From the NCBI GenBank assembly GCA_050331815.1, contig JBHJGM010000009.1, positions 11,187 through 75,186 on the forward strand: DNA of 64,000 nt. The letters run 5' to 3'. The translations under genes and the position numbers were made by a program. The DNA comes from Opitutales bacterium (GTDB lineage Bacteria; Verrucomicrobiota; Verrucomicrobiia; Opitutales; JBHJGM01). The notes beneath the pieces were generated by a model. The model worked only from the letters and a program-made list of their open reading frames with translations. It did not search any database and was not told where the DNA came from. Of the stretch, positions 9,824-64,000 are shown piece after piece; positions within the stretch are counted from its first letter, which is position 1, and the number at the start of each line of letters is the position of its first letter.

Positions 9824-9904
9824 TGCGTTAGCTAAAACCGCAGGTTTGGATCGGCTTTGCGAAAATGCAATGACAAAGGCGCGGCTTTGCAAAAGTCCAG
9901 CCGG

Positions 9905-12343: not shown

Positions 12344-12475
12344 GGTGTCCGCTGCTTGCGTCAAGAAAACGGTTGCCTTAACCGCCTGCCCACAGGAACA
12401 TCCGCCATTCAAGACGACGCGCCAAACGGACGGGAGGGAACGTCCGGGCCGCCGCACCCCGTTTCACCGTACACC

Positions 12476-17813: not shown

Positions 17814-19430
17814 CTAGGCGCGCGCCGCTGCGCGCTCGCCAGGTGGACCTCCGTTGGCGGCCAGCGGCTGTATCATGGTTTTGAGTACGCGCCGTTCATG
17901 CTGGGCGGCGACCTGTTTCTTGATCAGACCCAAACCCTCAAGCCGCGCGTCGCGGGCCCATTCGTAAATCCGTACGTACTGCCGCGCCGAACGCTCCCAG
18001 GAAAAATCCTGCACCATGGCCCGTTGCTGCATCGCCTCGTAGTGGTGGCGGCGGTCGTACCAGGTCGAGCAGGCCCAGCCGATGGTGTAATACAGCGCAT
18101 GTTCGTTGGGCTGGTCAAAGCGAAAGCCTGTTCCCTCCCCCGTAGCCTCGTTGTAGCTCTCCACCGTGTCGACCAGCCCGCCGGTGGCACGAACGATCGG
18201 CAGCGTCCCGTACTTGAGCGAATACAACTGGTTCAGCCCGCACGGCTCAAAGCGGCTGGGCATCACAAAAAAGTCCGAACCCGCTTCGACCAGATGCGCC
18301 AGTTGCTCGCTGTAACCGATGAAGCTGCCGACGCGTCCCGGGTAGCGTCCGGCCAGCTCGCGAAACTCTCCTTCCAGCGTCGGATCGCCCGCCCCAAGCA
18401 CAACGATTTGCACCGACATCTCAGCCATGATCCGCGGCACAATCGCCGCCAGCCAATCCAGACCCTTCTGGTCATACAGCCGCGAGATCACTCCGAAAAT
18501 CGGCAGCTCGGGATTCATTTCCAGGCCCAGGTGTTCCTGAAGAGCCCGCTTGCAGTGGGCTTTCCCAGACAAATTCTCTGCGGTGTAATTGGCCGGCAGG
18601 TGCGCGTCGGTGGCGGGATTCCAGGTATCGTAATCGACCCCGTTGAGCACCCCGATCAAATCAGCCGCTCGGAAGCGCACCACCTGATCGAGCCCGCAGC
18701 CGTAGGCGTGCGTTTTGATCTCCTCGGCGTAATGCGGACTGACGGTTGTCAGTTTGGTGGCGTTGTAGAGGCCGCCTTTCAAGTAGTTGGCGAAGCCGAC
18801 CGACTCCAGATCGTCGGGCCGGAACACCTCCGGGGGCAGCCCGGCCCAGTCCAGCACCTCGCGCGGAAAAATTCCCTGATGCTGCAGGTTATGGATGGTG
18901 AAGACGCTCGCGCAACGGCCCAGCGGGGTGTGCAGCTCTGTCGTGTTTAGAAAGACCGGAATGAGCCCGACGGTCCAATCATGCGCGTGGATGACATCGG
19001 GCTGCCAGTCCAGGTGGCGGCACAGCTCGATGGCGGCTTTGGCAAAAAAGGCAAAGCGGGCGCCGTTGTCCCCATGCGCCCCCCAGGGCCCCGAATAGAT
19101 TTCTGGGCGCTGGAAGTATTTGTTAAACTCCAAAAAGTACATCGGCGCGGCGGTCTGGGGGTAGCGCGTTTCCCAAACGCGCCCGTAATCCTCCTGGCCG
19201 TAGCCTAGGTGCACATGCACGGGGGTCTTGCGGGCTTGCCAGTCATCCCCGCGCTGGATGCTGCCGTACAGCGGACAAAAACCGCGGACATCCACGCCGA
19301 GCCGATGCAGCGCCTTGGTCAGCGAGCCGGCCATGTCGCCCAGCCCGCCAATCTTGGCGTAGGGCGCCACTTCGGGCGAAACGGATAAAATGCGTAGGGG
19401 GCGAACTTCAGCAGCGTCGACGTCGCTCAT
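17814..19430 (-). CDS. glgA: Glycogen/starch synthase (GT5) with a C-terminal extension
   Basis: 538 aa with RILSVSPEVAPYAKIGGLGDMAGSLTKAL (KxGGL motif), IHAHDW, and the C-terminal MPSRFEPCGLNQLYSLKYGTLPIVRATGGL. Confidence 0.9.
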   Translation of the reverse strand: MSDVDAAEVRPLRILSVSPEVAPYAKIGGLGDMAGSLTKALHRLGVDVRGFCPLYGSIQRGDDWQARKTPVHVHLGYGQEDYGRVWETRYPQTAAPMYFLEFNKYFQRPEIYSGPWGAHGDNGARFAFFAKAAIELCRHLDWQPDVIHAHDWTVGLIPVFLNTTELHTPLGRCASVFTIHNLQHQGIFPREVLDWAGLPPEVFRPDDLESVGFANYLKGGLYNATKLTTVSPHYAEEIKTHAYGCGLDQVVRFRAADLIGVLNGVDYDTWNPATDAHLPANYTAENLSGKAHCKRALQEHLGLEMNPELPIFGVISRLYDQKGLDWLAAIVPRIMAEMSVQIVVLGAGDPTLEGEFRELAGRYPGRVGSFIGYSEQLAHLVEAGSDFFVMPSRFEPCGLNQLYSLKYGTLPIVRATGGLVDTVESYNEATGEGTGFRFDQPNEHALYYTIGWACSTWYDRRHHYEAMQQRAMVQDFSWERSARQYVRIYEWARDARLEGLGLIKKQVAAQHERRVLKTMIQPLAANGGPPGERAAARA

Positions 19431-20629
19431 GCCGGTTTGGAATCTGTCGTCGGTGCCTCGCCATCGGTGTCGCTGCCATCCTCCGGCAGTTCCTCATCTT
19501 CAAAGCTCGGCATCTTGTAGGAGAATACCGGCAACAGCAGCATCAACGCCACGCAGGTGCAACCCAGGATCATGAAACCGGCGAAGTCATGCACGCTCCC
19601 TGTCCAGTGAAACAGGTCGTTCGGAATTTTTTCCCCTGCTGCGTCCAGCACGAACTTGCCCATCGCATCGACCTGGTATTCGGCCTCGCCCCAAAAGTCC
19701 CGGTCGATGGCGAACTGGCCGCGCTCGTTGGTCCAGCCGGTGAGGAAGATACTGCGCACGATGTTGAAGAAAAAGGCGAAGAGCATCGACGCACCAACCA
19801 TCAGGACCTTCTTCCAGGTCTTGTCTAGGAACATCGCGGCTAGGAATGACCCCGCGAAGATACAGGCCGTCAACGAGCGGATGCCCGAACAGGCGTCCTC
19901 CACATGCACGCGACCGTTGGGCAGAATCAGGATGCTGCCTTCGCGGATGATGGGGATGCCCACCGCGTCAAAGACCGCAAAGGTAATGACCGTGACCTGT
20001 TTCAGCAAAGCCGTGCTGATGGCCGCCTCCAGGGGCAGCAGCAGCGGGGCCGACACCAGCCAGATCAACGCCGGAAACGTAAACAGCGAGACGAAACGCA
20101 GCCGAGACCCCAGGGTGAGTCGCCGACCCTCCACGTCCCGATCGCTAATGACGAACGCCGCGAACAGGATGAATGAGGCCAGACCCACCGAAAAGCCGAA
20201 GGTCGACCAGTCGTGCTGGCTCATGATCGCTCGGACAAACCCACTGAAGCCCAGCAGGACAATGCTGCCCGCCAGGCACAAATATCCTATTGTCGAGGCG
20301 ATACCGCCGCCTGAGTCCCCGCTTGAGTATTCAACACGGGCCTCCGGATCGGTCCCGCTGTAATTGAGACCAAAAAGGTAGCTCTTAATAGAGGGGATGC
20401 GCTCAAAGATGACGTACGCCACAAAGAGCGGCACCAAATATCCAAAGAGGTAGTCGTCCAGCGTGTCCCACCAGTAGCTCTGGTCCCAGATCACAAACCC
20501 CATAAAGGCAGCGGCCAGGCCGATCAGCCCAAGCGTCCACGGATCGAGCTTCGCCCAATCGGAGTTTTTTGGCTCGGCCTTGGGCACCGGCGGCGGTGCC
20601 TGCGTAGGGGTTGGGACAACGGTTTCCAC
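19427..20629 (-). CDS. Exosortase-family transpeptidase (multi-pass membrane protein)
   Basis: 400 aa with VEDACSGIRSLTACI (catalytic Cys motif), FFFNIVRSIFL (Asn/Arg motif), a later His region and multiple TM segments. The stop overlaps the glgA start as ATGA (19427-19430). Confidence 0.8.
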   Translation of the reverse strand: METVVPTPTQAPPPVPKAEPKNSDWAKLDPWTLGLIGLAAAFMGFVIWDQSYWWDTLDDYLFGYLVPLFVAYVIFERIPSIKSYLFGLNYSGTDPEARVEYSSGDSGGGIASTIGYLCLAGSIVLLGFSGFVRAIMSQHDWSTFGFSVGLASFILFAAFVISDRDVEGRRLTLGSRLRFVSLFTFPALIWLVSAPLLLPLEAAISTALLKQVTVITFAVFDAVGIPIIREGSILILPNGRVHVEDACSGIRSLTACIFAGSFLAAMFLDKTWKKVLMVGASMLFAFFFNIVRSIFLTGWTNERGQFAIDRDFWGEAEYQVDAMGKFVLDAAGEKIPNDLFHWTGSVHDFAGFMILGCTCVALMLLLPVFSYKMPSFEDEELPEDGSDTDGEAPTTDSKPA

Positions 20630-31869: not shown

Positions 31870-34287
31870 ATGTCCGGCACCAGCGGCGACAATCCGTCCG
31901 ACGCACTCAATCAGGGCATAGACCTGAGTGAGCTGCAAAACCTGCAATTCGGTCCGGACTGGACCGAAGACAGTACTTCGCGCGATCACAGTCGCGCCAC
32001 GGGCCGTGACGAACGTCGTCCCGGGGGCGGTTCTCGTGGCGGCGGTCCCGCCCGCAAAGATCGGCGCTCTGGCGGACGCCCCGAAAGACGCGCGCCCAGC
32101 AACCGCGGCGGCGGCGGGGATCGAACGGGAGCCGGCGGCTCGCCTCAAGGTGGCCAACGCGGACGCGGCGGCCCGCGCGGTGAACGCGACTCGGGTGCTC
32201 GTGGTGAGCGGCGGGGCGGACGTTCGCAGGGCCGTGGTCAATTCCAACCGCCCTTTCAGCCGACCGTCGACGTCCTGTTTTACCCGGAAGACATTCCTTT
32301 CCGCGCGCTGACCAAGGCCCTGCGTGCCTCCATGCGTACGTATGAGTTGTTCGAAATCGCCCGGCTTATTCTGGACAAGCCCGATCGTTTTGTCGTGGTG
32401 GTGAAGCAAAAAGGCGCCTCCAAACATCGGAAAGACGACGACGAAAGCTCCAAGGAACCCAAGGAGATGGAACCGGATGCCGAGGGCGGTTTTGTAATTA
32501 CCCTGCCCGATGGCGTGCCCTTTGAAAACGAAGACGCCGCGCTGAGTCACGTGCTCAAGCACCAGCTCGAGCAGTTTTTCCGGACCGAAGAGGTCGAGGT
32601 GGAGCCGCCCAAGGGCTCATTCCAGTTTGTGAACCGCTGCTCGATCACCGGTGTATTGCTGGGCCCGCCCAATTATCACCGCTACCAGGCGATTGTGCAG
32701 GCGCATCACGCCGAGCGGCTCGCGCACATGCCCTTCGAGCGTTTCCAGTCCAAGATTGAGCAGGTGCGCGAACAGGAAGTCATCGACCAGTGGATGCAAC
32801 AGATGACCAAAGCCACGCGCTACATCCTCAAGGAGCCCGGCGAAAACGATCCGCCCTTTTTTGAGTCTGCCGAAAGCGCAAAGCACTTCCTGGCTTCGCA
32901 ACGCCGGGCCAAAATCCTGCGCAAGGTTGAATCGCCGCGCATGTCGGGCAAGCAGATTGAGCACATGCCCGAGACGGACCTGCGCCGCTCGATTGAAACC
33001 GTGCTCGAACAGCAGCACCGCTTTCCGCTGGACACCGCCAACAACCTGCGCGGGCGCCTGCGCCGCATGCGTTTCAACATTTATAAGCGTGGCTCAAAGG
33101 GAGTTTCGTACGTCTCGGCCATCAAGCGGAAGTTCCGCGACGAGAAGACGCGCTTCTCCGAATCGATCGAGGGTTTGATCCAGTTTCTCGAGGCCCACCC
33201 GAACATTTCGATCACCGAGCTTCCCGAGAAGTACCTCGGCCTGGACCTTGAAGCGTTGCGCCAGCCGCTTGAGGAAACGCCACCGGCGGCACCCGCCGAT
33301 ACTCAGGCTCCGGCGGTCGCAGCGGAAACCGCTCCCCCAGCTCAGGAAACGGCGACTCCAACTGAGGCCGCAGCCTCAGCCACCGATGCTGAAACGACCG
33401 TCAGCGCGGAAAAGCCGGATACGGTCGAAGCTCCCGCCGCTGCTTTGGAATCAGAACCGGCTATCCCTGCGCAAGCCGATGCACCGGTTGAAGCCGTTGT
33501 CGCTGAAACGTCCGTAAACGAGGAAGCCCAGGCACCTGCGGCTCCCGAAGCCGTTGCCGCCGATAAGACCGATACATCTGCGGAAGCCTCGCCCGCGGAC
33601 GCCGAATCTGTACCGGCTGAAGCTCCGGTTGACGAGTCTGCCAAAGCTTCTGCGCCCGAGCCCGCCGCTTCCTCGGACCAAGTCGAACAAAAAGCAGCAG
33701 CCGCGGCCCCGCCGGCCAAGCCGCAGGACGAGTTTCCTCGGGCCACACCTGAGCAGAAAGCCAAGCTGCGTCAGATGTCCAGCGATCTGCGTTGGCTGGT
33801 AGCCGAAGGCTATGTGACGGAATTTGGCGACGGCACTCTGTTCGCCCCACCCGCAGTTTCCACGCCGGCGCCCAAGCCCAAAGAGCCGAAGCCTGCGCCC
33901 GAGCCCGCAACAGGCAGTGCCGCCACGCAAGCCGCTGCGCCGCCCGTGGCCGAGGTGGCTCACGATACGCCCGTGTCGGAGGCTGCACCGCCCGCTCAGG
34001 CAGCGGAAACGCCTGCCGCCTCAGGCGAGGAGACGGTTGTCCCGGCACCACCTCCCCAACCAGAGTCGTCGGTGTCTGCAACAACAATGGAGACGACCGC
34101 GACGCCTTCGCAGCCGCCGCCTGTTGAAACCGCGCCCGGGCTGGATCCAGCCACGACGTCCGCAGCTGAAACACCCTCGAGCGACGGCGATACAACCGTC
34201 GAAAAAGAACCGGAACATCCTGAGGCCGACGCTGTTCCCGCCGCGTCCGCCAGCGAGGTTACCAGCAGCGAAGACAAGCCGAACTGA
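31870..34287 (+). CDS. Large hypothetical protein: RGG-rich disordered N-terminus, globular middle, Ala/Pro/Glu-rich disordered C-terminus
   Basis: 805 aa with coding-like GC3 throughout. Residues about 35-125 are Arg/Gly repeats (GGGSRGGGPARKDRRSGGRPERR..RGGRSQGRGQ). The middle (about 130-470) has ordinary composition. The last about 330 aa are A/P/E/T low complexity. Confidence 0.7.
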   Translation: MSGTSGDNPSDALNQGIDLSELQNLQFGPDWTEDSTSRDHSRATGRDERRPGGGSRGGGPARKDRRSGGRPERRAPSNRGGGGDRTGAGGSPQGGQRGRGGPRGERDSGARGERRGGRSQGRGQFQPPFQPTVDVLFYPEDIPFRALTKALRASMRTYELFEIARLILDKPDRFVVVVKQKGASKHRKDDDESSKEPKEMEPDAEGGFVITLPDGVPFENEDAALSHVLKHQLEQFFRTEEVEVEPPKGSFQFVNRCSITGVLLGPPNYHRYQAIVQAHHAERLAHMPFERFQSKIEQVREQEVIDQWMQQMTKATRYILKEPGENDPPFFESAESAKHFLASQRRAKILRKVESPRMSGKQIEHMPETDLRRSIETVLEQQHRFPLDTANNLRGRLRRMRFNIYKRGSKGVSYVSAIKRKFRDEKTRFSESIEGLIQFLEAHPNISITELPEKYLGLDLEALRQPLEETPPAAPADTQAPAVAAETAPPAQETATPTEAAASATDAETTVSAEKPDTVEAPAAALESEPAIPAQADAPVEAVVAETSVNEEAQAPAAPEAVAADKTDTSAEASPADAESVPAEAPVDESAKASAPEPAASSDQVEQKAAAAAPPAKPQDEFPRATPEQKAKLRQMSSDLRWLVAEGYVTEFGDGTLFAPPAVSTPAPKPKEPKPAPEPATGSAATQAAAPPVAEVAHDTPVSEAAPPAQAAETPAASGEETVVPAPPPQPESSVSATTMETTATPSQPPPVETAPGLDPATTSAAETPSSDGDTTVEKEPEHPEADAVPAASASEVTSSEDKPN

Positions 34288-42748: not shown

Positions 42749-44412
42749 GGCAGCAGCATGAAGCACAGCCCCATGATCACCGTGGGGATTGCCGCGCCAA
42801 AGAGCAGGCCCATCGGGTTGATACCGCCGTCAAAGTATTTCGCCAGCAGCGATTGACCTGCCGGGTTGGGCGCATTGGCGATGACCGTCAGACCTCCGCC
42901 CGTAACTGCCCCGGCCACCACCGCAAAGGAGGCGATCTCCGCAAACTCGCCTCCGGTGACCGGGTTGAACTCCGGCACCAGCGAAGCCAGAAAGGTGATC
43001 GCTGCGTTGTCGTTGAAGGCGGTCAAAATCGTTGAGCCCACGAAGAGCGGGACCTCGCTCAGGCTACTGAGCACAGGCGCAATCCACCAGCTTTGAAAGC
43101 CGCCATGGGTGACCAGCGCGCCCAGAAAGAATCCGACCAGGATCGGCCCGCGCAGGCTGATCGGCTCGTGGTGATGGTCGGTCGCCTTGGTGAAGGCCAG
43201 GAAAAAGAGAAAGCCGACGATGACCAGCGAGTAGTGGTGCAACACCAGCACCGTCCAGCCGATGAACAGCAGGTTGACCGCGACAACCCACCCCGGAATC
43301 CGGTAGCTGCGCTCGCGTTTCATACCGGCTTCGCGCAGCGCGCGGGCCTTCAGCTCCTTGAATTCACCCCGGAAGTAAGCCAGGTAAATCAGGTTGGAAA
43401 TCACGATACCGGTGGCGGCCTTCCAACCAAAGTTCGTCATCATGTAGGCGATATCGAAGCCCCAGACCCCTTGCACCATCAGCACCGGCGGTGCGGCGAA
43501 GTTCGTCAAGGTGCCGCCGACCGAGACGTTGACGAAGAGCAGACCCAGGGTCGCGAACTTCAATTTGCCAGATGGCCCCAGCGCATAAAATTGCCGGCCC
43601 AACAACAGTGCGGCCACCGTCATGGCGGCGGGTTCGGTGATGAAGGAGCCCAGCAGCGGGGCGATCGTCAGAATCGATAGCCACCAGGCCAGCGGTGTCT
43701 GCTTGCCGAGTTTGGCCACGTAGCCGAGCATGCTCTCGGAAAAGCGGATGACCGGCTGGGTGGAGGCCATCGCCATGATCACCACGACGAAGATGGGCTC
43801 CGAGTAGCGACTGGTGTACTCGCCTTGCAGGTAGTAGTGCTCCATCGTGTGGAAGTAGTGCACCACGTAATCCCAGCCATGCAGCATCGAGGTCAGCAAC
43901 CCGTGCCCGGAGATGAGGTGCTCGTAGCCGTAGTAGCCGATGGTGAAGAGGATCAGCGGTACCAGCCAGATACCAAAGACCGCCTCGATCTCTCCAAGAA
44001 AGTGAAAGATCACCGCCTTGATGCTGACCGGCACCTGCACGTCGGGATCGTTCTTCTTGATCTCCCGCCACTTCTCTTCGTGCGCGTGCTCGATCTTGTG
44101 CGACAGCTTCATAAAAAAGCTGGCCAGAAACGTGTGCACAATCGCCAGAAAGAATAACAGCGAGGCGATCAGGTTGAAAGGTTCCTGCTGGATACGATAC
44201 TTCAACTTGCCAAAGAGAGACTCGATGTGGGCATCGTCGTAGGCATCCAGTCCCAGCGGAAATTCCAGATGCGCGCCGTGGCCGGAGTCCTCGCCATGGC
44301 CGTGCGCCGCGGCCTCGGCCTCGCCTCCGCCCGCACCGAAAACGACCGCACAAGCGGCCAGCAACACAGCAAAAACAAGCGAAAACCGAAGGATGCGGGG
44401 GGTCATGGACAT
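42745..44412 (-). CDS. Multi-pass membrane transporter, putative Na+/H+ antiporter-like family; His-rich periplasmic N-terminus
   Basis: 555 aa with a signal/TM start, AAAHGHGEDSGHGAHLEF, then more than 10 hydrophobic segments. Family call from recollection of putative-antiporter family architecture. The 673 aa ORF 43364..45385 on the same strand is a shadow. Confidence 0.55.
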   Translation of the reverse strand: MSMTPRILRFSLVFAVLLAACAVVFGAGGGEAEAAAHGHGEDSGHGAHLEFPLGLDAYDDAHIESLFGKLKYRIQQEPFNLIASLLFFLAIVHTFLASFFMKLSHKIEHAHEEKWREIKKNDPDVQVPVSIKAVIFHFLGEIEAVFGIWLVPLILFTIGYYGYEHLISGHGLLTSMLHGWDYVVHYFHTMEHYYLQGEYTSRYSEPIFVVVIMAMASTQPVIRFSESMLGYVAKLGKQTPLAWWLSILTIAPLLGSFITEPAAMTVAALLLGRQFYALGPSGKLKFATLGLLFVNVSVGGTLTNFAAPPVLMVQGVWGFDIAYMMTNFGWKAATGIVISNLIYLAYFRGEFKELKARALREAGMKRERSYRIPGWVVAVNLLFIGWTVLVLHHYSLVIVGFLFFLAFTKATDHHHEPISLRGPILVGFFLGALVTHGGFQSWWIAPVLSSLSEVPLFVGSTILTAFNDNAAITFLASLVPEFNPVTGGEFAEIASFAVVAGAVTGGGLTVIANAPNPAGQSLLAKYFDGGINPMGLLFGAAIPTVIMGLCFMLLP

Positions 44413-44560
44413 ATCTGGGATACGCGCGTCGAAACGCCGAACAAACGCATCCGGGGCGACGATGGAAAGGTTTTTCTCGGATCGTCGACACCGGAGCGGT
44501 TTTCATGCCACGGGTCCAAGGCTTGCCATCGCCTGGGTGATCTGCTGGCTTGCCGGGCCT

Positions 44561-45787
44561 ATGCGCATCCAAGCCTTTCAGGGCCTCCGGCCCGATCCCG
44601 AACGTGCCCCCGAAGTGGCCTCGCTGCCCTACGACGTGGTTTCCACCGAGGAAGCCCGCGAACTGGCTGCCGGCAATCCGCTGAGCTTTCTGCACGTTGT
44701 GCGGGCCGAGATCGATCGGCCGCCCGACAGCGATCCCTACGCCGACGCCGTTTACGCCAAGGCCCGCGAAAATCTCGAGCGCCTGCAAGAGTTGCAAGTC
44801 CTCGTCCGCGAGCCTGAGCCCTGTTTGTATATCTACGAGTTGGAGATGCTTGGGCGCACCCAGCGCGGACTCGTCACGGTCTGCCACATCGGCGATTACG
44901 AAAACGACGTCATCAAAAAGCACGAAAAGACCCGCAAAGCCAAAGAGGACGACCGCACCAAACTCAACGCCACGCTCTCGGCCCATCCGGGTCCGGTCTT
45001 TCTGACCTACCGTGACCAGCCGGAAATCAACGCCCTGGTCAACCGGGTCTGCGAGGAAGCGCCGTTCATCAACTTCACGGCTGAGGACAGCGTGCGCCAC
45101 ACGATCTGGCGGGTGCCCGGCGGGGGCGACTTCCCGCACAGCTTTAGCAGCGTGCCGGTGGCCTACGTGGCCGACGGGCACCACCGCAGTGCCAGCGCCG
45201 CCCGCGTCGGCGGCGAACGCAGGGCCAACAACCCCAGCCACACCGGCGAAGAGCCCTACAACTGGTTTCTGGCCGTGGCCTTTCCCGCCTCCGAGTTGAA
45301 CATCCTCGCTTACAATCGCGTGGTTTTCGATTTGAATGGGCTTAGCGCCGACGACTTTCTCAAGCAGCTGGAAGCCAGTGAACACCTAGCCGAAGTCTCC
45401 GAGGAAGCCGCCGCCGTGCCGGCTCAGACCGGCGAGGTCTGTTTTTACCTCGACGGCAAATGGCGCTCGCTACGTTTCGAGGCCATCCACACCGACGACC
45501 CCGCCGCGCGCCTGGATGTCGCCCGGCTGCAGGACAATGTGCTGGCGCCCATCCTTGGCATCGGCGACCCGCGCACGGATGCACGAATTGATTTTGTCGG
45601 CGGCATCCGCGGCACCGAATTTCTGGAGAAGCAGGTCGACTCCGGGAAGGCAGCCATCGCCTTCTCGATGCATCCGGTCACGGTTGACGAGCTTATGGCG
45701 ATAGCGGACGCCGGAAAAATCATGCCGCCGAAGAGCACCTGGTTTGAGCCCAAGCTGCGCTCCGGTCTCTTCGTCCACACCTTCTGA
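44561..45787 (+). CDS. DUF1015-family protein
   Basis: From the Met at 44561: MRIQAFQGLRPDPERAPEVASLPYDVVSTEEARELAAGNPLSFLHVVR and later ADGHHRSASA, typical of DUF1015. Confidence 0.8.
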   Translation: MRIQAFQGLRPDPERAPEVASLPYDVVSTEEARELAAGNPLSFLHVVRAEIDRPPDSDPYADAVYAKARENLERLQELQVLVREPEPCLYIYELEMLGRTQRGLVTVCHIGDYENDVIKKHEKTRKAKEDDRTKLNATLSAHPGPVFLTYRDQPEINALVNRVCEEAPFINFTAEDSVRHTIWRVPGGGDFPHSFSSVPVAYVADGHHRSASAARVGGERRANNPSHTGEEPYNWFLAVAFPASELNILAYNRVVFDLNGLSADDFLKQLEASEHLAEVSEEAAAVPAQTGEVCFYLDGKWRSLRFEAIHTDDPAARLDVARLQDNVLAPILGIGDPRTDARIDFVGGIRGTEFLEKQVDSGKAAIAFSMHPVTVDELMAIADAGKIMPPKSTWFEPKLRSGLFVHTF

Positions 45788-46014
45788 GCCACGCACCTCG
45801 GCATCCAGCCCCACACCCGTAAATAAGATCAGAGTCCCCGATCACCACAACCCAGGCAGCTTTCCCAACGATGAACGAGGTCCGTGTAACCAAGCACAGC
45901 TCCCCGACCACACGACATCAGGACCTCCTGACAACTCGACCTTCTGACCAAGCACCAAGTACGAGGTACTAAGCACTAGGAACCAAGTACTATCACTCCG
46001 AGCTCCGTGCTTCC
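45788..46014. repeat. C/A-rich, G-poor intergenic repeat region (copy A)
   Basis: Shares ctgacca (45944-45950) and the exact 13-mer ggtactaagcact (45965-45977) with 49434-49453. Contains iterated YYAAGYAC units and a gacatcaggac motif. Confidence 0.45.
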
Positions 46015-46923
46015 CTACTCTTTAACACGGGCCTCGATGGTCCAGTTGCCCTTTTCGACTTTCGGGGGACCCTCGCCGGTGCTGCGGATGAGCGGAGTGG
46101 GCGCATTGGCAGTGTCGCTGGGTCTGGAGAGCGGTGCGCGATCCACGTTGCCGCTAGAGCGCAGCTTCGACTGCGAATAAATCGGGTCGGGGTCGAAAAT
46201 CGGACTGGGCGGCGGGAGGCCGCGCTGGGCGGGCGCGTTGACGCTTTGCACGGGAATCGGTCCGTCGGGACGATTCGAGCTGAACTGGTAGCGGTTGAGG
46301 TCGCGCAACGAAAGTTTGTCGACGTCCTGAGTGAGGGCCTCGCGGTCGACATCGCCAAAGCGCCCGACCTCAGCCTCCGAATACTTGCGCACCAACACGG
46401 TCTCCTTCATCTGATCCCAGTTGGAGAAGTACGCGCGCTCATCCTGCAGCACCTCGTTGCGCTCAAAGCCCCAGCGGCGACCGGCCCCGCCAAACATTTT
46501 GCGCTCCAGCACATCTTTTCGCTGGTTATCCTCCAGGTCGATGGGTGCGCGCCGGTCATTCAAAAAGGACATCTCCTCGCCGCCCCACTGACGCACCATG
46601 AAGCGCTTGTCGCCGAGTACCGCGTTCAACTCGGGCGACTGCTGGCGAAAACGGCTGTTGATCTGATTCTGCGTGGGGGCGAACCGCAGCGAGTTCGCCG
46701 AGCTGGTGCCCGTCGTGGGATTGGCAATGACGTTGGAGCCGTTCCCGCCACCTGCCGATGACATCCAGCCCTGGGCGATCGTGGACCCGCTGCTTTGCGC
46801 ACCGCCGCCGCTGAAGGTGCTGGCGTTGGTCAGCCCGCGCGTACGCGTGGCACCGAGCAGGGTGTCGGCTGCCAGGAGGGCGATGAAGGTCAAATAGAGG
46901 GTTGGGGCAAGCACCCGTAACAT
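46015..46923 (-). CDS. Hypothetical secreted protein
   Basis: 302 aa. Signal-like MLRVLAPTLYLTFIALLAADTLLGA, then a Gly/Ser/Asn-rich segment and a charged middle. No motif recognised. Confidence 0.6.
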   Translation of the reverse strand: MLRVLAPTLYLTFIALLAADTLLGATRTRGLTNASTFSGGGAQSSGSTIAQGWMSSAGGGNGSNVIANPTTGTSSANSLRFAPTQNQINSRFRQQSPELNAVLGDKRFMVRQWGGEEMSFLNDRRAPIDLEDNQRKDVLERKMFGGAGRRWGFERNEVLQDERAYFSNWDQMKETVLVRKYSEAEVGRFGDVDREALTQDVDKLSLRDLNRYQFSSNRPDGPIPVQSVNAPAQRGLPPPSPIFDPDPIYSQSKLRSSGNVDRAPLSRPSDTANAPTPLIRSTGEGPPKVEKGNWTIEARVKE

Positions 46924-46987
46924 GGTTGTAAACTAGGGATTTCCGAGCGTACTTGCAAGGCTCCAGCCAGCGCCCCATTGTTCAGGC

Positions 46988-47788
46988 ATGGAGGCTTATC
47001 TGCAGCTTTTGAGGCACGTGCGCGACCGGGGAGAACCGCGCCAGGATCGCACCGGCGTTGGCACGCGCAGCGTTTTTGGGGCACAGGTGCGCTTCGACCT
47101 GCGCAAGGGCTTCCCGCTGCTGACCACCAAAAAAGTTCACTTCAAATCTGTCGCCATTGAGCTGCTCTGGTTCCTGCGTGGGGACACCCATCTCGATTTC
47201 CTGCACGCGCACAAGGTCTCCATCTGGGACGAGTGGGCCGACGCCAACGGCGACCTCGGGCGGGTCTACGGCGCGCAGTGGCGCTCCTGGCAAAAACCGG
47301 CCAGTGCGGAAACCATCGACCAGATCGGCAACGTCGTCGCCTCCCTGAAAACCGATCCGCACAGCCGGCGGCATCTGGTTTGCGCCTGGAATCCCGGCGA
47401 ACTCGACCAGATGGCGCTGCCTCCCTGCCACGCGCTCTTTCAGTTTTACGCGCACGAGGACGGCGGGCTCAGCTGCCAGTTGTACCAGCGCAGTGCGGAC
47501 CTGTTTTTGGGAGTGCCTTTCAACATCGCCAGCTACGCCCTGCTGACCCACATGGTCGCCCAGGTGACAGGCCGCACGCCGCGCGAATTTATCCACCCCT
47601 TCGGCGACCTGCACCTTTACAACAATCACCTCGAGCAGGTGGAGCAACAACTGGCCCGCACGCCCCGCCCCCTGCCCCGCCTGCAACTGGACCCTACCGT
47701 CGAGCGCCTGGAAGATTTCGAGTACGGCCACCTGCAGGTTCTCGACTACGACCCGCATCCGGTCATCAAGGCACCCATCGCGGTCTGA
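46988..47788 (+). CDS. thyA: Thymidylate synthase
   Basis: 266 aa with [23 protein letters not shown] and the [10 protein letters not shown] catalytic Cys motif. Confidence 0.95.
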
Positions 47789-47794
47789 TCCAAG

Positions 47795-48283
47795 ATGGAG
47801 CGCCTGCCCTACAAGGCCATCGCGGCCATGAGCGAGAACCGCGCCATTGGGCGCGACAACGACCTGCCCTGGGACCTGCCCGAGGACGTGCGCTGGCTCA
47901 TGTTGCGCACCCGCCGGGCTCTCTGCGTGATGGGCCGCAAGACCTTCGAGTCCATGCCCAAGCCGATGAAAAACCGCGAAACTGTGATCGTGACCCGCCA
48001 ACGCGATTACACCCCCCGATTCGAGGCCAAGGTCATTCACGAACTCGATGACTGCCTGCCCCTGGCACAGGGCCGGGAGATTTTTATCTTCGGCGGCGAG
48101 GAGATTTATCGGCTCGCCATGCCCAAAACCAGCGAGATTTACCTCACCCACGTGCACCGCACCGTCGACGGCGACGCCTTTTTCCCGCCCTTTGAAGCGA
48201 GCTTTCGGGCCGACCACACGCTGCGCCAGACACCCGAATTCAGCATCGTTCACTACACCCGCCTGCCCGTCTCCAACGCATGA
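47795..48283 (+). CDS. folA: Dihydrofolate reductase
   Basis: 162 aa with [34 protein letters not shown] motifs. 4-nt overlap with the next gene. Confidence 0.9.
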
Positions 48284-48696
48284 AGCATTTACGCAAGGAA
48301 CTCTGGTTCGAGCTGCCCAACCGGCGCGAACTGGTCAACATAACCCCCGAAGTGGAAGCCGCCGTACGCGAAAGCGGCGTCTTTCACGGGCTTTGCCTGG
48401 TCAACGCGATGCACATCTCGGCCAGCGTCTTCATCAACGATGACGAGTCGGGGCTGCACCACGACTTCGAGGTCTGGCTGGAAAAGCTGGCCCCCGAACT
48501 GCCGCATGAGCAGTACCAGCACAACGGCCATGAGGATAATGCCGACGCGCACCTGAAACGCACCGTCATGGGGCGCGAGGTGGTGGTCGCGATCACCGAT
48601 GGCAAACTCGACTTCGGTCCCTGGGAGCAGATTTTCTACGGCGAGTTTGACGGCAAACGCAAAAAACGCGTCCTCATCAAAATCATCGGCGAATGA
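48280..48696 (+). CDS. yjbQ: YjbQ/UPF0047 family (secondary thiamine-phosphate synthase) protein
   Basis: 138 aa with [45 protein letters not shown], typical of UPF0047. Confidence 0.85.
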
Positions 48697-48774
48697 GAGC
48701 CTGACATCCTGACACCCAGACGACAGGACATCCGGACAACGCGGCCAACAGTCAAGGCCCGCCGCATCCTCATC

Positions 48775-49278
48775 ATGGGCACGAGTTGCTCGGGCAAAAG
48801 CACCCTGGCAGAGGCGGTCGGCGCGAAAACAAACCTGCCGGTCACTCACCTCGATGACTTGTTTTGGAATCCCGGCTGGGTCGAGACGCCGCTCGAAGCA
48901 TTTCGCGACAAAGTGCGTCGCGCTGTCTTTGAAGAAAACTGGATCATCGACGGCAATTACAGCCGCATCGCCGAGCTGACCCGCAACCGGGCTACGGAAA
49001 TTGTCTGGCTGCACCTGCCGTTCACGCTGGTGTTCGCACGCTGCCTCAAGCGCACAATGGGGCGCGCCGTCACGGGTGCGCCCTGCTGCAACGGCAACCG
49101 CGAGTCCCTCCGGCGCTCCTTCCTCAGCCGCGACAGCATCATCCTCTGGGTCCTGCGCTCGCATCGAAAAGCACGGCAACGCTATGCGCGTGAGTTTGCG
49201 CCCGGACAGCCGAACGCAGAGAAAGTCACCCGCCTGGATTCCCGTCGCGCCATCCAAGCTTGGCTGGAGGCTTTGTGA
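48775..49278 (+). CDS. P-loop NTPase / adenylate-kinase-like small kinase
   Basis: MGTSCSGKSTLAE Walker A at residue 2, then HLDDLFW..NWIIDGNY. The expected beta-1 strand (RRILI) is encoded upstream of the first ATG (see findings). Confidence 0.75.
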   Translation: MGTSCSGKSTLAEAVGAKTNLPVTHLDDLFWNPGWVETPLEAFRDKVRRAVFEENWIIDGNYSRIAELTRNRATEIVWLHLPFTLVFARCLKRTMGRAVTGAPCCNGNRESLRRSFLSRDSIILWVLRSHRKARQRYAREFAPGQPNAEKVTRLDSRRAIQAWLEAL

Positions 49279-59908: not shown

Positions 59909-61300
59909 CTAAACCAGCGACCACGGTGCTTTGGAGCCATTGCCATTACCGGAACCGTTTCCGTTCGCATGTCCGTTGCTGTTTGTAGCGTGCGCTGCCT
60001 TGGCCACAAATTCGTCGCGGAACTTTTTGACGAAGCTCTCCGTGGGCCAGGCACAGGCTTCACCGTGGGCGCAAATCGTCCGCCCGGATATTTGTTGCGA
60101 AATCGAAAAGAGCAGATCGGCGTCTTCTTCTCCCCGCGCACCGCCATGGGCCATGCGGTCGGTCACCTTTTTCATCCAGAGCGAACCTTCGCGGCAGGGC
60201 GTGCACTGACCGCAACTTTCGTGGGCGTAGAAGGCGTTGATGTTGGCCAGTACTTCCACGATGTCCGCCGAGTCGTCCATTACCGTGACCGCGCCAGAAC
60301 CTGACATCGAGCCGCAAGCCATCAGCGAGTCGAAGTCCATCGGGATGTCTTCAAGCGCCCAATTAAATTCCTGTCCGCCCTTGAGCTTGCCCTGAAAGCG
60401 CTCGCCCGCCTTCAGCACCTTGGCCGAAGACCCCCCCGGAATCACCGCCTTGAGCGAACGGCCTGGACGCAAGCCCCCGGCCACCTCGTTGATCAACTGC
60501 CCCAAGGTGACTTCGCCACAGGCAAACTCGTAGTAGCCGGGTTTTTGCACATGCCCGCTCACGCTCCAAATACGGGTGCCGGTATTGCCGGGCGTGCCGA
60601 TTTTGGAAAATGCTTCACCGCCCATCTCGATAACGTGCTTCACGTGGCAGAGCGTCTCGACGTTGTTCACAATGGTTGGACACATGTACAGGCCGAGCAC
60701 CGCCGGAAAGTACGGTGGTTTGATGCGCGGGTACGCACGCTTGCCTTCGAGCGATTCGATCAGGCCGGTTTCCTCGCCGCAGATGTAGGCGCCGGCTCCA
60801 CGGTGCACAATCAGATCGCAGGAGTAGCCGGAGCCGCAGATATTTTCGCCGACAAAACCTTTCTCACGAGCTTCCTCGATGGCACGTTCGAGGATGCGCG
60901 CACCTTCATACATTTCTCCGCGAATGTAGATAAACGCCAAGGCGGTCTTGGTCGCAAAAGCACTAATCATCATGCCTTCGATCAGCTGATGCGGATCTTT
61001 ATGCATGATCTGCCGATCTTTGAAAGTGCCGGGCTCGGACTCGTCGGCGTTGCAGATCAGGTAAATGGGCTTGCCGGACTTGCGGTCCAAAAATTTCCAC
61101 TTCATACCGGCCGGAAAGCCCGCGCCTCCGCGACCACGCACGCCCGATTTTTCGACCTCGCTGCAAAGGTCCTCGGGTTTTTGTTGCACGGCTTTCTTCA
61201 ATACCTCGTAGCCACCGTGCTGCATGTAACAGTCGATGTCATTGGTGTAACCGGGCGCGTCGGCGTGCTTCAGGATGATGCGTCGTTCTTGAATGGCCAT
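59909..61300 (-). CDS. nuoF: NADH-quinone oxidoreductase subunit F, with low-complexity Asn/Gly C-terminal tail
   Basis: 463 aa with GRGGAGFPAGMKW (FMN/NADH site) and ESCGQCTPCREG (4Fe-4S). The tail is ..HATNSNGHANGNGSGNGNGSKAPWSLV. Confidence 0.93.
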   Translation of the reverse strand: MAIQERRIILKHADAPGYTNDIDCYMQHGGYEVLKKAVQQKPEDLCSEVEKSGVRGRGGAGFPAGMKWKFLDRKSGKPIYLICNADESEPGTFKDRQIMHKDPHQLIEGMMISAFATKTALAFIYIRGEMYEGARILERAIEEAREKGFVGENICGSGYSCDLIVHRGAGAYICGEETGLIESLEGKRAYPRIKPPYFPAVLGLYMCPTIVNNVETLCHVKHVIEMGGEAFSKIGTPGNTGTRIWSVSGHVQKPGYYEFACGEVTLGQLINEVAGGLRPGRSLKAVIPGGSSAKVLKAGERFQGKLKGGQEFNWALEDIPMDFDSLMACGSMSGSGAVTVMDDSADIVEVLANINAFYAHESCGQCTPCREGSLWMKKVTDRMAHGGARGEEDADLLFSISQQISGRTICAHGEACAWPTESFVKKFRDEFVAKAAHATNSNGHANGNGSGNGNGSKAPWSLV

Positions 61301-61320: not shown

Positions 61321-61836
61321 TTACTCCGCGGAGGCAGCGGCAGCAGTGGTGGGAAGACCGGCTTCCTCGCGTAGCTTCTGGGCAAAAGCTTCCGCCGTAT
61401 CGGGCGTGACTATTGCGTAATCGGTTTCATCGACCTGTACGGCCGGAGCGATGTGGCAGTTGGCGAGACACTCAACGAACTCGATTTGAAATTCGCCGTC
61501 CGCGCTGCGCTCGGTTTCGGCGTCGATGCCGAGCTCCTTTTCCAGAATTTCGCGAGTTTTGTAGCACCCGGCCAGAGCACAGCTCAACGTGCGGCAAACC
61601 CGGATTTGACGTTTGGCCGGCGGCTCTCGCAAAAACATCGGGTAAAAAGTGACAACCTCGTAGACCTGGATTGGCTCAATCTCGAGCCTTTCGGCGATCC
61701 AGGGATGACTTTCGTCCGCAACGTAGCCTTTTTCTTCCTGAATGGCGTACAGCACCATCAAGAGTGCGCTGCGTTTTTGCGGGTAGCGCGCAATCAGCTT
61801 GTCGATGTAAGCGGTGGTTTTCTCGGAAAGTTCCAT
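61321..61836 (-). CDS. nuoE: NADH-quinone oxidoreductase subunit E ([2Fe-2S] thioredoxin-like)
   Basis: 171 aa with RVCRTLSCALAGC and VECLANCHIAPAVQVD motifs. Confidence 0.92.
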   Translation of the reverse strand: MELSEKTTAYIDKLIARYPQKRSALLMVLYAIQEEKGYVADESHPWIAERLEIEPIQVYEVVTFYPMFLREPPAKRQIRVCRTLSCALAGCYKTREILEKELGIDAETERSADGEFQIEFVECLANCHIAPAVQVDETDYAIVTPDTAEAFAQKLREEAGLPTTAAAASAE

Positions 61837-61858
61837 GCGGTAATTTTCTACCGCAGCG

Positions 61859-61884
61859 ATATTACCAGCTCAAGCGCAGGTCAA
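61859..61884 (-). promoter_or_regulatory. Weak candidate promoter upstream of nuoE
   Basis: On the minus strand TTGACC (61884-61879), a spacer of only 14 nt, then TAATAT (61864-61859), 22 nt before the nuoE ATG. The alternative TTGAGC-17-TAGAAA overlaps it. Pattern match only. Confidence 0.2.
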
Positions 61885-61976: not shown

Positions 61977-62480
61977 CTATTCAGCGAGGAAACGCTGGCG
62001 CAACAACGCCCGACCCTCATCCGCGTCAAAGGGCTCAGCTTCGCTGTACATGGTGCGTTCCTGTACCTGAGCCTGTCGTGACTCCAGGTAGCGGGAGGTT
62101 AGCGAGCCCGAGGAGACGTGGCGGCTAGAGCCGTCGGCGGAGTTGGCCGAGTCGTAAGCTGCCTGAGAGCGCGCGATGGCTGTTTCGCCAGTGGTCCCGC
62201 GGTAGTAGCCAGGAAAATCGCGGTAGACCGGACGAAAGTAAGGGCGCACGTAAACCCTGCTGTAGCTGCGGAAGGGAAACCCATGCGAGCGGAAGTGGCC
62301 CACGTGTCCTCCGAAAAAAGGATGCCCGAAGCTGCTGCGTGCGTAACTGCGGTAGCCAAATCCATAACCCAAGCAACTGCCGGCCTGAGCTGCCAGCGGA
62401 GCCCCGGCGATCAGGGCGAACAAAACGACTAAACGGGCTTTCCTCAGCCCGCGCAAGAATTGGGTCAATGGAGCGCGCAT
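61977..62480 (-). CDS. Small secreted Gly/aromatic/Arg/His-rich protein (family member 1)
   Basis: 167 aa. Signal peptide ..LVVLFALIAGAPLAAQA|GS. Mature N-terminus CLGYGFGYRSYARSSFGHPFFGGHVGHFRSHGFPFRSYSRVYVRPYFRPVYRDFPGYYRG. Confidence 0.65.
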   Translation of the reverse strand: MRAPLTQFLRGLRKARLVVLFALIAGAPLAAQAGSCLGYGFGYRSYARSSFGHPFFGGHVGHFRSHGFPFRSYSRVYVRPYFRPVYRDFPGYYRGTTGETAIARSQAAYDSANSADGSSRHVSSGSLTSRYLESRQAQVQERTMYSEAEPFDADEGRALLRQRFLAE

Positions 62481-62503
62481 GGTAATAAGAGTGACGATGT
62501 AAA

Positions 62504-62532
62504 ATGATATTCCCGAAGCGCCTCGAATGCAA
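62504..62532 (-). promoter_or_regulatory. Candidate sigma70-type promoter for the 61977..62480 gene
   Basis: Minus strand: TTGCAT (62532-62527), 17-nt spacer, TATCAT (62509-62504), 23 nt upstream of the ATG at 62480. Confidence 0.35.
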
Positions 62533-62586
62533 GCGGGCAGCCGGCTTCACAGCGACTGAGTTCGCTGCAGACCAACCAGCAAGGAC

Positions 62587-62624
62587 GCAAAAAGGCCAGA
62601 GACGTCACCTCCACGTCTCTGGCC
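62587..62624 (-). terminator. Intrinsic terminator after the 62789..63268 gene
   Basis: Perfect 12-bp stem (ggccagagacgt 62594-62605 / acgtctctggcc 62613-62624) with a 7-nt loop. On the minus strand it is followed by TTTTTGCG (A-run 62589-62593 on plus). Confidence 0.6.
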
Positions 62625-62788
62625 CGGATGTCGGTCTGTTCATTCCGCAGACGCGAACAAGTTTTACAGACTTTCAAACCAACTAAACGAAATCCGCTGC
62701 GGTGATGTTGGTTCGCAGGCCAGCCTGTACGGGCACCCGCAGGTGCCCGCGAGGCATTTGAGCCGTTCGACCTGACAAGACCGGTCAA

Positions 62789-63268
62789 TCAATAGCGTTT
62801 GCGCAACAGCTTCTTTTTCAAAACGAAGCCGCGCTTGTGTCCAAAATGCGTGCGATGGTGCTTCTTCACCACCCCGGTGCCGAGGTAGGCATGGGGATGC
62901 TTTTTTACGATGACCTTCTTCTGCACCCCATGCGTCTGGGCATGGTAGGCCGGGGTCTTGTGCTTGAGCACCGGCTTGGGATGGTGCACCGCGCCGTGTT
63001 TGTAGCCCGGATGCTTGAAGACAAAGCTCTTGCTGAAGGCACCCGGATGCACGTACTGCGGGCTGCGGTTATACACGCGGTGCCCCAAAGCGGGCTTGCC
63101 AATGACCCCACGATTAAAATTGGAGTGGCCAAAGCTGTGCCCGAAGCTGCGGTGGCCAAAATTTGCCTGAGCGGTCAAAGTGGTGCCCAGCAAAAGACTG
63201 GCAGCCACGAGTAATTTGAAGAGAAAACTGCGAGGCAGCCCCCTGTCGGTTCGAAGGTTCTTAATCAT
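62789..63268 (-). CDS. Small secreted His/Lys-rich basic protein (family member 2)
   Basis: Signal ..FLFKLLVAASLLLGTTLTAQA|NFGH. Mature part has about 18 His (NFGHRSFGHSFGHSNF..KHPGYKHGAVHHPKPVLKHK..KKHHRTHFGHKRG) and ends ..LLRKRY. ATG at 63268 is preferred over the TTG at 63286. Confidence 0.7.
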   Translation of the reverse strand: MIKNLRTDRGLPRSFLFKLLVAASLLLGTTLTAQANFGHRSFGHSFGHSNFNRGVIGKPALGHRVYNRSPQYVHPGAFSKSFVFKHPGYKHGAVHHPKPVLKHKTPAYHAQTHGVQKKVIVKKHPHAYLGTGVVKKHHRTHFGHKRGFVLKKKLLRKRY

Positions 63269-63445
63269 GCCGGTGCGACCCTTCAAACGGTTGTTTTATT
63301 CCGACTGGTCCCGAATTCCACAAAGAAGCTGGGATGAGGTTCGCTTATTTTACGTGGGATAATCCGGCAATCAGGATGCACCCCGGGCACCTCCGAAAGG
63401 CACCTGTGCCGGGCGCGTTGAATTTGATCGCCGTTACTGTGATTT

Positions 63446-63522
63446 GAAGAAACCCGGGCGCCGCCAACAGGAGCAGGGTTGCTCGGGAGTTAGGGCATGG
63501 CGACGCCCGGGCGGATTTCTTC
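63446..63522 (-). terminator. Long stem-loop immediately after the 63543..63983 gene (possible terminator or RNA element)
   Basis: gaagaaa+cccgggcgccgcc (63446-63465) pairs with ggcgacgcccggg (63499-63511) and tttcttc (63516-63522). About 20 bp of pairing with one wobble and a loop of about 33 nt. T-rich 3' side on the minus strand. Confidence 0.35.
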
Positions 63523-63542
63523 ACATTAGTATCTCTACACGT

Positions 63543-63983
63543 TTAATAGCGCGGGAAAGTACGCTTGGTGACGCCAACCACCACGCGGGTATCCCCGTTA
63601 TTGTAGACCACGCGCCCGCCTACCTTGCCACGCGGCGGCAGCGGAGCCGCGCAGATATTGCCGGGCCCGTAGACGCGCCGCTGGACGTGCGCTCGGCGCG
63701 TTTGCGCGCAACCGCAATTGTAATGCTGGCGATGGAAACGGCGCTGCTGCCAGGCGTGATAGCGCTGACCGTAGCCGTAGGGTCGCCAGTGGTTGGCACG
63801 GTGGCGCGGGTAGTGGATGCGTTCCGTGACCACCTCCCGGTGGACGACTTTGCCCTTACCGTAAGGCCCACCTCCCCGGATCTCCTTGTGGTATGGATTG
63901 GCCTGAGCAGCCGCAGCTGCGGTTACAAGCAGGCTCGAAACTACAAGGAGCTTGAGCGCTGCGAGGGTTTTTGGGTTCCCCAC
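63543..63983 (-). CDS. Small secreted His/Arg/Tyr-rich protein (family member 3)
   Basis: 146 aa, GTG start. Signal ..LKLLVVSSLLVTAAAAAQA|NPYH. Mature part IHYPRHRANHWRPYGYGQRYHAWQQRRFHRQHYNCGC.. and ends ..TFPRY. Confidence 0.65.
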   Translation of the reverse strand: MGNPKTLAALKLLVVSSLLVTAAAAAQANPYHKEIRGGGPYGKGKVVHREVVTERIHYPRHRANHWRPYGYGQRYHAWQQRRFHRQHYNCGCAQTRRAHVQRRVYGPGNICAAPLPPRGKVGGRVVYNNGDTRVVVGVTKRTFPRY

Positions 63984-64000
63984 CCGATGTGTCAGGTTGT

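Follow-up and report, generated by a model that had tools for sequence, protein, structure and literature searches.

The window analysed here, a stretch of 64,000 nucleotides (nt) from the genome of an Opitutales bacterium (Verrucomicrobiota; contig JBHJGM010000009.1), ends in three consecutive minus-strand genes, here called G1, G2 and G3, that encode small exported proteins and occupy the gap of a split gene cluster for respiratory complex I (nuo), in the order nuoD - thuA - G3 - G2 - G1 - nuoE - nuoF ... nuoN. A preceding sequence-only reading had placed three genes here, and the open reading frames (ORFs) were confirmed with one correction. G1 covers 61977..62480 (minus strand, 167 amino acids) and G2 covers 62789..63268 (minus strand, 159 amino acids from an ATG; a TTG six codons upstream was considered as an alternative start and has no support from conservation). 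The part of the G3 ORF inside the window, 63543-63983, yields 146 amino acids from a GTG, but the true start is an ATG seven codons further upstream at about 64004 (MNNLTHRVGNPKTL...), as indicated by a conserved upstream motif and by a public 4.9-kb contig (L001; Logan SRR6462985), which is identical to the window DNA and extends beyond its edge. The complete G3 protein thus has 153 amino acids, and its coding sequence fills 63543..64000 (minus strand), the first four nucleotides lying outside. The gaps upstream of the genes are 308 bp (G1), 274 bp (G2) and 150 bp (G3, taken from L001). The three proteins are identical or 99% identical to the hypothetical proteins ACFBZ8_08955, ACFBZ8_08960 and ACFBZ8_08965 of an Opitutales metagenome-assembled genome (MAG), for which the public PGAP annotation uses internal start codons in G1 and G2 (148 and 139 amino acids), cutting into the signal peptides and removing their n-regions. 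The evidence set out below indicates that G1, G2 and G3 are very probably real, exported, disordered, separately transcribed and clade-restricted genes.

Homologues of G1 were found in two other Opitutales MAGs, the proteins P0004 (49% identical) and P0005 (42% identical). Their contigs, L002 and L003, share the arrangement nuoBCD - thuA - variable gene(s) - three small genes without Pfam match - nuoE-F-G..., and translation of the small genes revealed clear orthologues of G2 (L002 9348-9779; L003 8965-9396) and G3 (L002 8277-8753; L003 8297-8791), the order of the trio being the same in all three genomes. With corrected starts, G1 and its orthologues all have 167 amino acids (the annotation of P0004 is over-extended to 179). 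A composition scan of the window, L002 and L003 found no further copies of the trio, and the expectation that more copies might lie past position 64000 was not borne out, as L001 shows a ThuA-like gene (PF06283) there, followed by the 3' end of nuoD. Gene content varies in the gap that separates thuA from the trio: a gene for a PIN-domain protein (7553-7984) is present there in L002 and an opposite-strand ankyrin-repeat gene (7712-8164) in L003. L002 also carries an SRPBCC/AHSA1-like gene that separates G3 from G2 and is encoded on the other strand (8834-9277).

It could be argued that the trio ORFs have no function or were wrongly called in GC-rich DNA between genes, as the sequences are of low complexity, are all annotated as hypothetical and are accompanied by long antisense ORFs. 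However, the ratio of nonsynonymous to synonymous substitution rates, calculated for the less saturated pair L002/L003, is 0.12 for G1, 0.21 for G2 and 0.19 for G3, compared with 0.16 for ThuA and 0.03 for NuoE, and the same pair has the excess of third-position changes expected for coding sequences. Indels among the orthologues are in frame, the GC content of third codon positions exceeds the overall GC content, and no frame but the sense frame stays open from end to end in all nine orthologous genes. In addition, the signal peptides are conserved, and promoter-like motifs are placed exactly at the ATG codons. The sequence-only reading had allowed for the case that the antisense frames rather than the sense frames are conserved; what was found is that the sense ORFs are kept in the relatives under purifying selection. 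Judged by these substitution patterns, the probability that the genes are spurious is negligible, and this possibility appears effectively excluded. The trio diverges faster than its neighbours, with 34-53% identity to the window proteins, compared with 63% for ThuA and 81-86% for NuoE, within three genomes that are closely related (NuoE 81-92% identical).

The earlier reading did not recognise the family, and no characterised family was matched by any profile search. The three window proteins and their six orthologues have no match in Pfam at E <= 1 and no family match in NCBIfam, where the sole weak match (0.23) is to the signal peptide; PADLOC and PHROGs gave no match for the trio proteins, profile searches of PDB sequences gave nothing below E = 0.05, and no matching family was found in the literature on His-rich periplasmic disordered proteins. 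A single-sequence search of 5.8 billion proteins returned only the query itself for G2 and for G3 and two orthologues for G1, and a HMMER profile of G1 recovered, among 1.84 billion representative proteins, its own family plus one spurious repeat protein (P0006). The contigs of species-representative genomes yielded the two known MAGs only, JGI metagenomes yielded nothing with the G1 profile and a single 30%-identical ThuA with the ThuA profile, and the viral contigs of IMG/VR yielded nothing with the G2 and G3 profiles. The word-indexed single-sequence search also missed the real G2 and G3 orthologues on L002 and L003, and therefore the narrow range of these two proteins is a lower bound. On the basis of these searches, the trio is regarded as three orphan, lineage-restricted families of one Opitutales clade. 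MAGs commonly encode secreted orphan proteins of low complexity, and the families are new, with no sign yet of a new mechanism.

The proposal that the three genes are paralog-like is not supported: their mature regions are without detectable similarity, and only the signal-peptide region is common to all. In an all-versus-all BLASTP comparison, G1 and G2 match with E = 0.003, and G3 matches the others with E > 2. Alignment of the orthologue profiles with hhalign joined columns 7-66 of G1/G2 and columns 9-39 of G2/G3 and gave a probability of 0.9% for G1/G3; what aligns is the signal peptides and, in G1/G2, some 20 further residues. As far as sequence comparison reaches, G1, G2 and G3 are best treated as three families with a common type of export signal and a common composition.

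The export signals were evaluated by hand, the features sought being a basic n-region, an h-region of 10-15 residues and an A-x-A motif about 20-35 residues from the start. In all nine proteins the n-region contains Lys or Arg, the Kyte-Doolittle mean of the 12-mer is 1.9-2.7, and AQA or AHA occurs near residues 31-37; in the window proteins the motif is AQA at residues 31-35, in line with the signal peptide ending in AQA that had been predicted for each gene. These features are kept across the nine proteins while flanking and mature sequence diverges. According to alignment and composition, the signal peptide of G1 comprises amino acids 1-33 (62382..62480, minus strand; ...APLAAQA followed by GSC) and that of G2 comprises amino acids 1-35 (63164..63268, minus strand; ...GTTLTAQA followed by NFGH). 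The junctions are conserved as well, in G2 as an invariant A-x-A/NFG in all three genomes and in G1 as AQA/G(S)C, with an invariant Cys two to three residues after AQA.

The Cys raises the question of a lipoprotein cleaved by signal peptidase II, which was evaluated with the lipobox [LVI][ASTVI][GAS]C and the PROSITE pattern PS51257, {DERK}(6)-[LIVMFWSTAG](2)-[LIVMFYSTAGCQ]-[AGS]-C. G1 was rejected as a candidate in a hand check, as it has Gln at -3 (orthologues) or -4 (window), which is forbidden by a PS51257-type rule; G2 lacks Cys altogether, and in G3 the Cys residues lie at a distance from the signal. Export by the twin-arginine translocation pathway was also considered and rejected: with reference to (S/T)RRxFLK, a twin Arg is present only in G2 of L003 (SFRRNLK), L002 having GRKF and the window protein RTDRG, and the motif is not conserved.

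The mature regions had been described as low-complexity and very basic; G2 and G3 are indeed strongly basic, whereas G1 is only moderately so. Mature G2 has an isoelectric point (pI) of 11.5 and a net charge of +26, with 14.5% His, 14.5% Lys and no Asp or Glu; mature G3 has a pI of 11.1 and a net charge of +20, with 7.6% His and 16% Arg; and mature G1 has a pI of 9.6 and a net charge of +5, with 3.7% His, 13% Arg, 13% Ser, 11% Gly and 17% Tyr plus Phe. The C-terminal RY reported for two of the three proteins is present in G2 and G3. Across all genomes the net charge of G2 and G3 ranges from +20 to +26, with 0-3% acidic residues, and with respect to the charge-hydropathy boundary all proteins fall in the disordered range. 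An AlphaFold2 (AF2) model of G3 has a mean predicted local distance difference test score (pLDDT) of 45, its sole feature being a low-confidence beta-hairpin at 131-144. For G1, modelled from a three-sequence alignment, the mean pLDDT is 49.5, with values below 50 for residues 28-99 and 116-147 and predicted helices at 99-113, 127-142 and 153-166. The signal peptide of G1 is followed by a disordered N-terminal half rich in Gly, Arg, Ser, Tyr and Phe and by a helical C-terminal half that is conserved and terminates in GRALLRQRFLAE; its conserved island reads ...FPGYY...GE(S/T)AIARS.AA..SA...HVSSG...SR...EGRALLR(Q/E)RFLAE. G3 has a conserved C-terminal motif, C-A-x-P...G..V...NG-x-TRV-x-x-GV-x-K, with one invariant Cys. 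In G2, conservation comprises NFG-x-R..GH and then scattered His, Gly, Val and Lys columns; the protein contains FGH repeats as well as a weakly repeated unit of about 14 residues, of the type K/H-G-V-V-x-K, visible as periodicity at lags 13/14 and 28 in the orthologues (z about 2.5-2.7), the top lags of the window protein being 5, 17 and 28.

The high His content makes a periplasmic metal buffer or 'sponge' the main rival explanation, in which the His-rich disordered G2 and G3 would bind Ni, Zn, Cu(II) or Co under the control of a metal-responsive sigma factor of the extracytoplasmic function (ECF) group, a logic comparable to that of SilE/PcoE or ZraP. His is maintained at 10-15% in mature G2 and at 8-11% in mature G3 over the three genomes, GHxxGH and FGH repeats are present, and some ECF sigma factors, such as CnrH, govern metal resistance. 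Nevertheless, the conservation of His positions does not exceed the average (0.28 versus 0.29-0.31 overall), and Gly, Val (in G2) and Lys/Arg positions are conserved as well as or better than His. His residues are not clustered in the window G2 (P = 0.65) and are over-dispersed, i.e., more evenly spaced than random, in its orthologues (P = 0.98); the G3 orthologues do have significant clustering (P = 0.05 and 0.002), but the window G3 does not (P = 0.42), and G1 is poor in His. Judged from these alignments, the trio is a case of conserved composition rather than conserved sites. A net charge of +20 to +26 without carboxylates would make a poor cation chelator and an excellent polyanion binder, and metal binding leaves the Lys/Arg load unexplained. 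Moreover, neither a Pfam survey of about 40 ORFs of the window nor the L002 and L003 loci revealed a metal transporter or sensor gene nearby. Export, disorder, positive charge and the Gly/aromatic composition are common to the trio, and His clusters are not; therefore, polyanion binding by polycations fits the shared features better than metal binding, which is judged possible but rather unlikely as the principal role.

With respect to transcription, strong hairpins had been noted behind G2 and G3, and both proved to be real when their folding was compared with that of shuffled sequences. G2 is followed by an intrinsic terminator at 62588..62625 (minus strand; L001 3076-3108) with a 13-bp GC-rich stem, a 7-nt loop and a U5 tail (-27.8 kcal/mol, z -4.9; none of the shuffles folded as well), and G3 by a long, GC-rich, terminator-like hairpin at 63445..63523 (minus strand; L001 2190-2248), in which a 15-bp GC-rich core lies in an extended hairpin that precedes UUUCUUC (-44.5 kcal/mol, z -6.6; no shuffle was as stable). 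In L002, an 11-bp stem with U5 follows G3 (z -3.4). Between G1 and nuoE, no hairpin was found (folding z +0.5). Together with a promoter-like motif in front of each gene and the opposite-strand gene between G3 and G2 in L002, the terminators support the view of three monocistronic units put forward before. An Rfam scan over the locus revealed no riboswitch or leader RNA; its one microRNA match, a GC-rich palindrome inside G3 (GCGCGCAAACGCGCCG / CGGCGCGTCTACGGGC; L001 1990-2038, about 63663-63711 of the window), was far below threshold (29.9 bits versus a gathering value of 73) and was judged spurious.

A scan for sigma70-type promoters upstream of the trio genes gave no match. Alignment of the three genomes uncovered a conserved footprint right before the start codons of the trio genes, in otherwise poorly conserved intergenic DNA, and the form GGAAY-N18-19-GTC/TCT-N7-9-ATG precedes eight of the nine genes. 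The promoter-like motif of G1 is GGAAT-N18-TCT-N7-ATG (62478..62513, minus strand), conserved in the relatives as GGAAA-N19-TCT-N7/8-ATGCGCG (L002 10003-10039; L003 9620-9657). G2 is preceded by a near-invariant block, GGAATAAAAC-N3-CGTTTGAA-N2-GTC-N8-ATG (63266..63302, minus strand), the form of which over all three genomes, GGAATAAAAC-N3-CGTTT.AA-N2-GTC-N8-ATG, has a single match in the 64-kb window. The G3 motif is GGAACAAAACGAACGTTTGATTTGTC-N9-ATG in L002 and L003, and the corresponding site of the window is degenerate (TGCAAC-N17-GTT-N11-ATG). When the regular expression GGAA[CTA]-N17-19-(GTC/GTT/TCT)-N6-11-ATG was combined with an ORF of at least 50 amino acids, only trio genes were retrieved from the 64-kb window and both 20-kb loci.

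The actinobacterial SigE/SigH/SigR consensus is GGAAC/T-N18-19-GTT, the -35 and -10 elements of E. coli sigmaE are GGAAC and GTC, and certain ECF promoters lie 0-1 nt from the start codon (PMC10012870). Measured against a -35 element GGAAC/T with an AAC core, a spacer of about 16-19 nt and a -10 element GTC/GTT/CGT kept in orthologues, G2 and G3 have GGAAY-N18-GTC and G1 has GGAA(T/A)-N18/19-TCT. The trio motif thus resembles an ECF-sigma promoter, and dependence on such a sigma factor is inferred from three genomes only. The -35 and -10 elements, their spacing and the envelope-protein targets are like those of the regulons of E. coli sigmaE and actinobacterial SigE/SigH/SigR; in contrast to these, TCT replaces GTC/GTT in G1, and no candidate for the cognate sigma factor was found among the about 40 window ORFs surveyed with Pfam. 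In the eight well-conserved sites, the distance of 7-9 nt from the -10-like triplet to the ATG suggests that the mRNAs are leaderless or nearly so.

The constant genomic context might indicate that the proteins are lineage-specific periplasmic accessory or assembly factors of complex I. The place between nuoD/thuA and nuoE is kept in all three genomes, and G1 transcripts may read into nuoE-N, there being no terminator in between. However, every gene of the trio is preceded by a promoter motif of its own, G3 and G2 are set apart by terminators, and nuoE (61321..61836, minus strand; PF01257), the first gene of the nuoE-N block, has a different, sigma70-like promoter about 20 nt upstream of its ATG (TTGACC-N17-TATCGC; 61856..61884, minus strand). 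This element is distinct from the trio motifs and is conserved in the three genomes as TTGACC-N17-TAnnnC with an invariant TTGACCTG, and thus nuoE-N appears to be a transcription unit of its own. Unrelated genes (PIN, ankyrin and SRPBCC) are found in this gap as well, the synteny of such close relatives is of little weight, and the trio diverges far faster than the Nuo subunits. A role in complex I is therefore highly improbable, and the place of the trio inside the nuo cluster is probably historical, i.e., a plastic gap between two nuo transcription units, and not functional.

The explanation preferred here is that G1, G2 and G3 are stress-induced periplasmic polycations that bind anionic components of the cell envelope, to which a probability of roughly 0.35 is assigned. 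Each gene would be transcribed alone from an ECF-sigma-type promoter into a leaderless or nearly leaderless mRNA; the protein would be exported by the Sec pathway, cut by signal peptidase I after A-Q/H-A and released into the periplasm as a disordered polycation, 110-135 residues long, in which Arg/Lys, His, Gly and aromatic residues abound. Induction would be by envelope stress, and the ligands could be peptidoglycan carboxylates, anionic lipids, lipopolysaccharide or acidic glycans. Binding would be multivalent, through electrostatic and cation-pi interactions, and the abundance of His would allow pH and/or metal to tune the charge. In this scheme, sigma-factor dependence, the leaderless start, periplasmic location, ligand and physiological role are all inferred from the genomes. 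Taken jointly, the whole explanation of genes, regulation, export and role is tentative, with something less than an even chance of being correct.

Several observations weigh against this explanation. The footprint in front of the genes is derived from three genomes only, and if no ORF is required to follow, the window shows no enrichment of the loose motif (3 observed versus 2.3 expected), so that the signal is one of position and phylogeny and not of abundance. The motif of G2 and G3 contains a palindrome, AAACG-NN-CGTTT, which is absent from G1 and which could be the operator of a repressor instead of a promoter element. In the Pfam survey of the 64-kb window, no ECF sigma gene was found. 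A Sec signal by itself does not show that a protein is retained in the periplasm. The mild basicity of G1 and its conserved helical, partly acidic C-terminal half are not explained by the idea of a polycation, and the G3 orthologues contain a run of HHHH or HHHHH, absent from the window G3, that points to metal binding.

Another possibility is that the proteins are secreted cationic antimicrobial peptides, bacteriocin- or histatin-like, directed against competitors. The C-terminus of G2, KKHHRTHFGHKRGFVLKKKLLRKRY, resembles histatin-type, cationic amphipathic peptides, and the fast divergence in comparison with NuoE would be in accord with such a function. However, a protein with nothing but a Sec signal stays in the periplasm of the cell that makes it, none of the three loci has neighbouring genes for immunity, processing or export, and there is no PADLOC, PHROG or bacteriocin Pfam match. 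Purifying selection and a stable chromosomal position within a housekeeping operon are also atypical for antimicrobial peptides. An antimicrobial function thus has no specific support and is very unlikely.

A more elaborate version of the polycation hypothesis is an ECF-sigma-switched periplasmic module, in which the three different disordered polycations act together, perhaps as a condensate or coat, tunable by pH or metal, for protection or remodelling of the envelope. Such an effector of bacterial envelope stress would be without a described counterpart. The coat or condensate might be located at the peptidoglycan or at membranes, and the single invariant Cys residues of G1 and of G3 might form a disulfide-linked pair. 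As a whole, this module is considered clearly unlikely, and a variant in which the proteins are supernumerary periplasmic partners of complex I is less likely.

Stress-induced periplasmic polycations would have partial counterparts among known systems. SilE and PcoE, the small periplasmic metal 'sponges' encoded in silver and copper resistance operons, are, like the trio proteins, disordered proteins of about 140 amino acids with a Sec signal; they are stress-induced, as the trio would be, and composition and short motifs, and not a fold, carry the function. They are Met/His-rich with HxxM/MxxH motifs, acidic to neutral, and plasmid-borne together with efflux pumps, whereas the trio proteins contain essentially no Met, are extremely basic and chromosomally encoded, have no metal genes nearby and share no sequence similarity with them. 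Spy, CpxP and ZraP of the LTXXQ family are also small Sec-exported periplasmic proteins with their own stress promoters, and ZraP has Gly/His-rich ends. However, they form folded alpha-helical cradles under two-component control, and the trio proteins differ in having no Pfam match at E <= 1, in being mostly disordered by prediction and in having an ECF-like and not a response-regulator-type motif. Histatin-5 and other His-rich cationic peptides are secreted, disordered, acid-poor and rich in His, Lys, Arg, Gly, Tyr and Phe, and histatins bind metals and anionic membranes. In contrast to the trio proteins, histatins are eukaryotic salivary peptides of 24-38 residues, whereas mature G2 has 124 residues, is bacterial and probably periplasmic, and there is no homology. 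Mussel foot proteins and the His-rich proteins of squid beaks have similarly basic low-complexity 'sticker-spacer' sequences rich in Gly, Tyr, His and Lys, and such marine adhesive or coacervating proteins bind polyanions and surfaces, with pH-dependent phase separation being possible. They are animal extracellular materials, whereas for the trio nothing indicates export across the outer membrane, modification to dihydroxyphenylalanine (DOPA) or formation of a material. Profile searches placed the trio in none of these four groups, and the resemblance is one of composition and architecture only.

The surroundings of the trio also have features of their own. A cytoplasmic ThuA-like gene (PF06283) directly follows nuoD in all three Opitutales genomes (L001 878-1546, about 64155-64823 in window numbering; L002 6233-6895; L003 7043-7705), and the nuo cluster is thereby split into nuoA?BCD-thuA and nuoE-N. 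In L003, a pair of DUF6883 and DUF4926 genes between nuoF and nuoG (12217-12784) has the look of a toxin-antitoxin-type insertion and is absent from the window and L002. The NuoF C-terminus in the window (about 59909-59985, minus strand) has a low-complexity Asn/Gly tail, ...NSNGHANGNGSGNGNGSKAPWSLV, outside the usual 51-kDa subunit. Directly downstream of nuoN, five consecutive ORFs of 322, 423, 302, 123 and 673 amino acids (43364-49257, minus strand) have no Pfam match at E <= 1e-5, and two large ORFs of 513 and 805 amino acids on the plus strand (2925-4466 and 31870-34287) also have no Pfam match. Further genes encode a bacterial SET-domain protein (9206-9892, minus strand) and an exosortase (EpsH; 19427-20629, minus strand), the latter adjoining a GT5 starch/glycogen-synthase-like gene (17814-19430, minus strand).

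A practical consequence concerns annotation, as the automated procedure leaves two of the three proteins too short and without their export signals. Should the trio proteins prove to do no more than bind metals or polyanions, they would be a modest addition to a known theme. If the explanation preferred here is true, they would offer a tractable case of disordered polycations in the bacterial periplasm, where such proteins have barely been studied, and an ECF-type regulon with leaderless mRNAs in the Verrucomicrobiota, a phylum with essentially uncharacterised promoters. They would also be an example of fast-evolving orphan genes that have stayed together within a gene cluster of core respiration.

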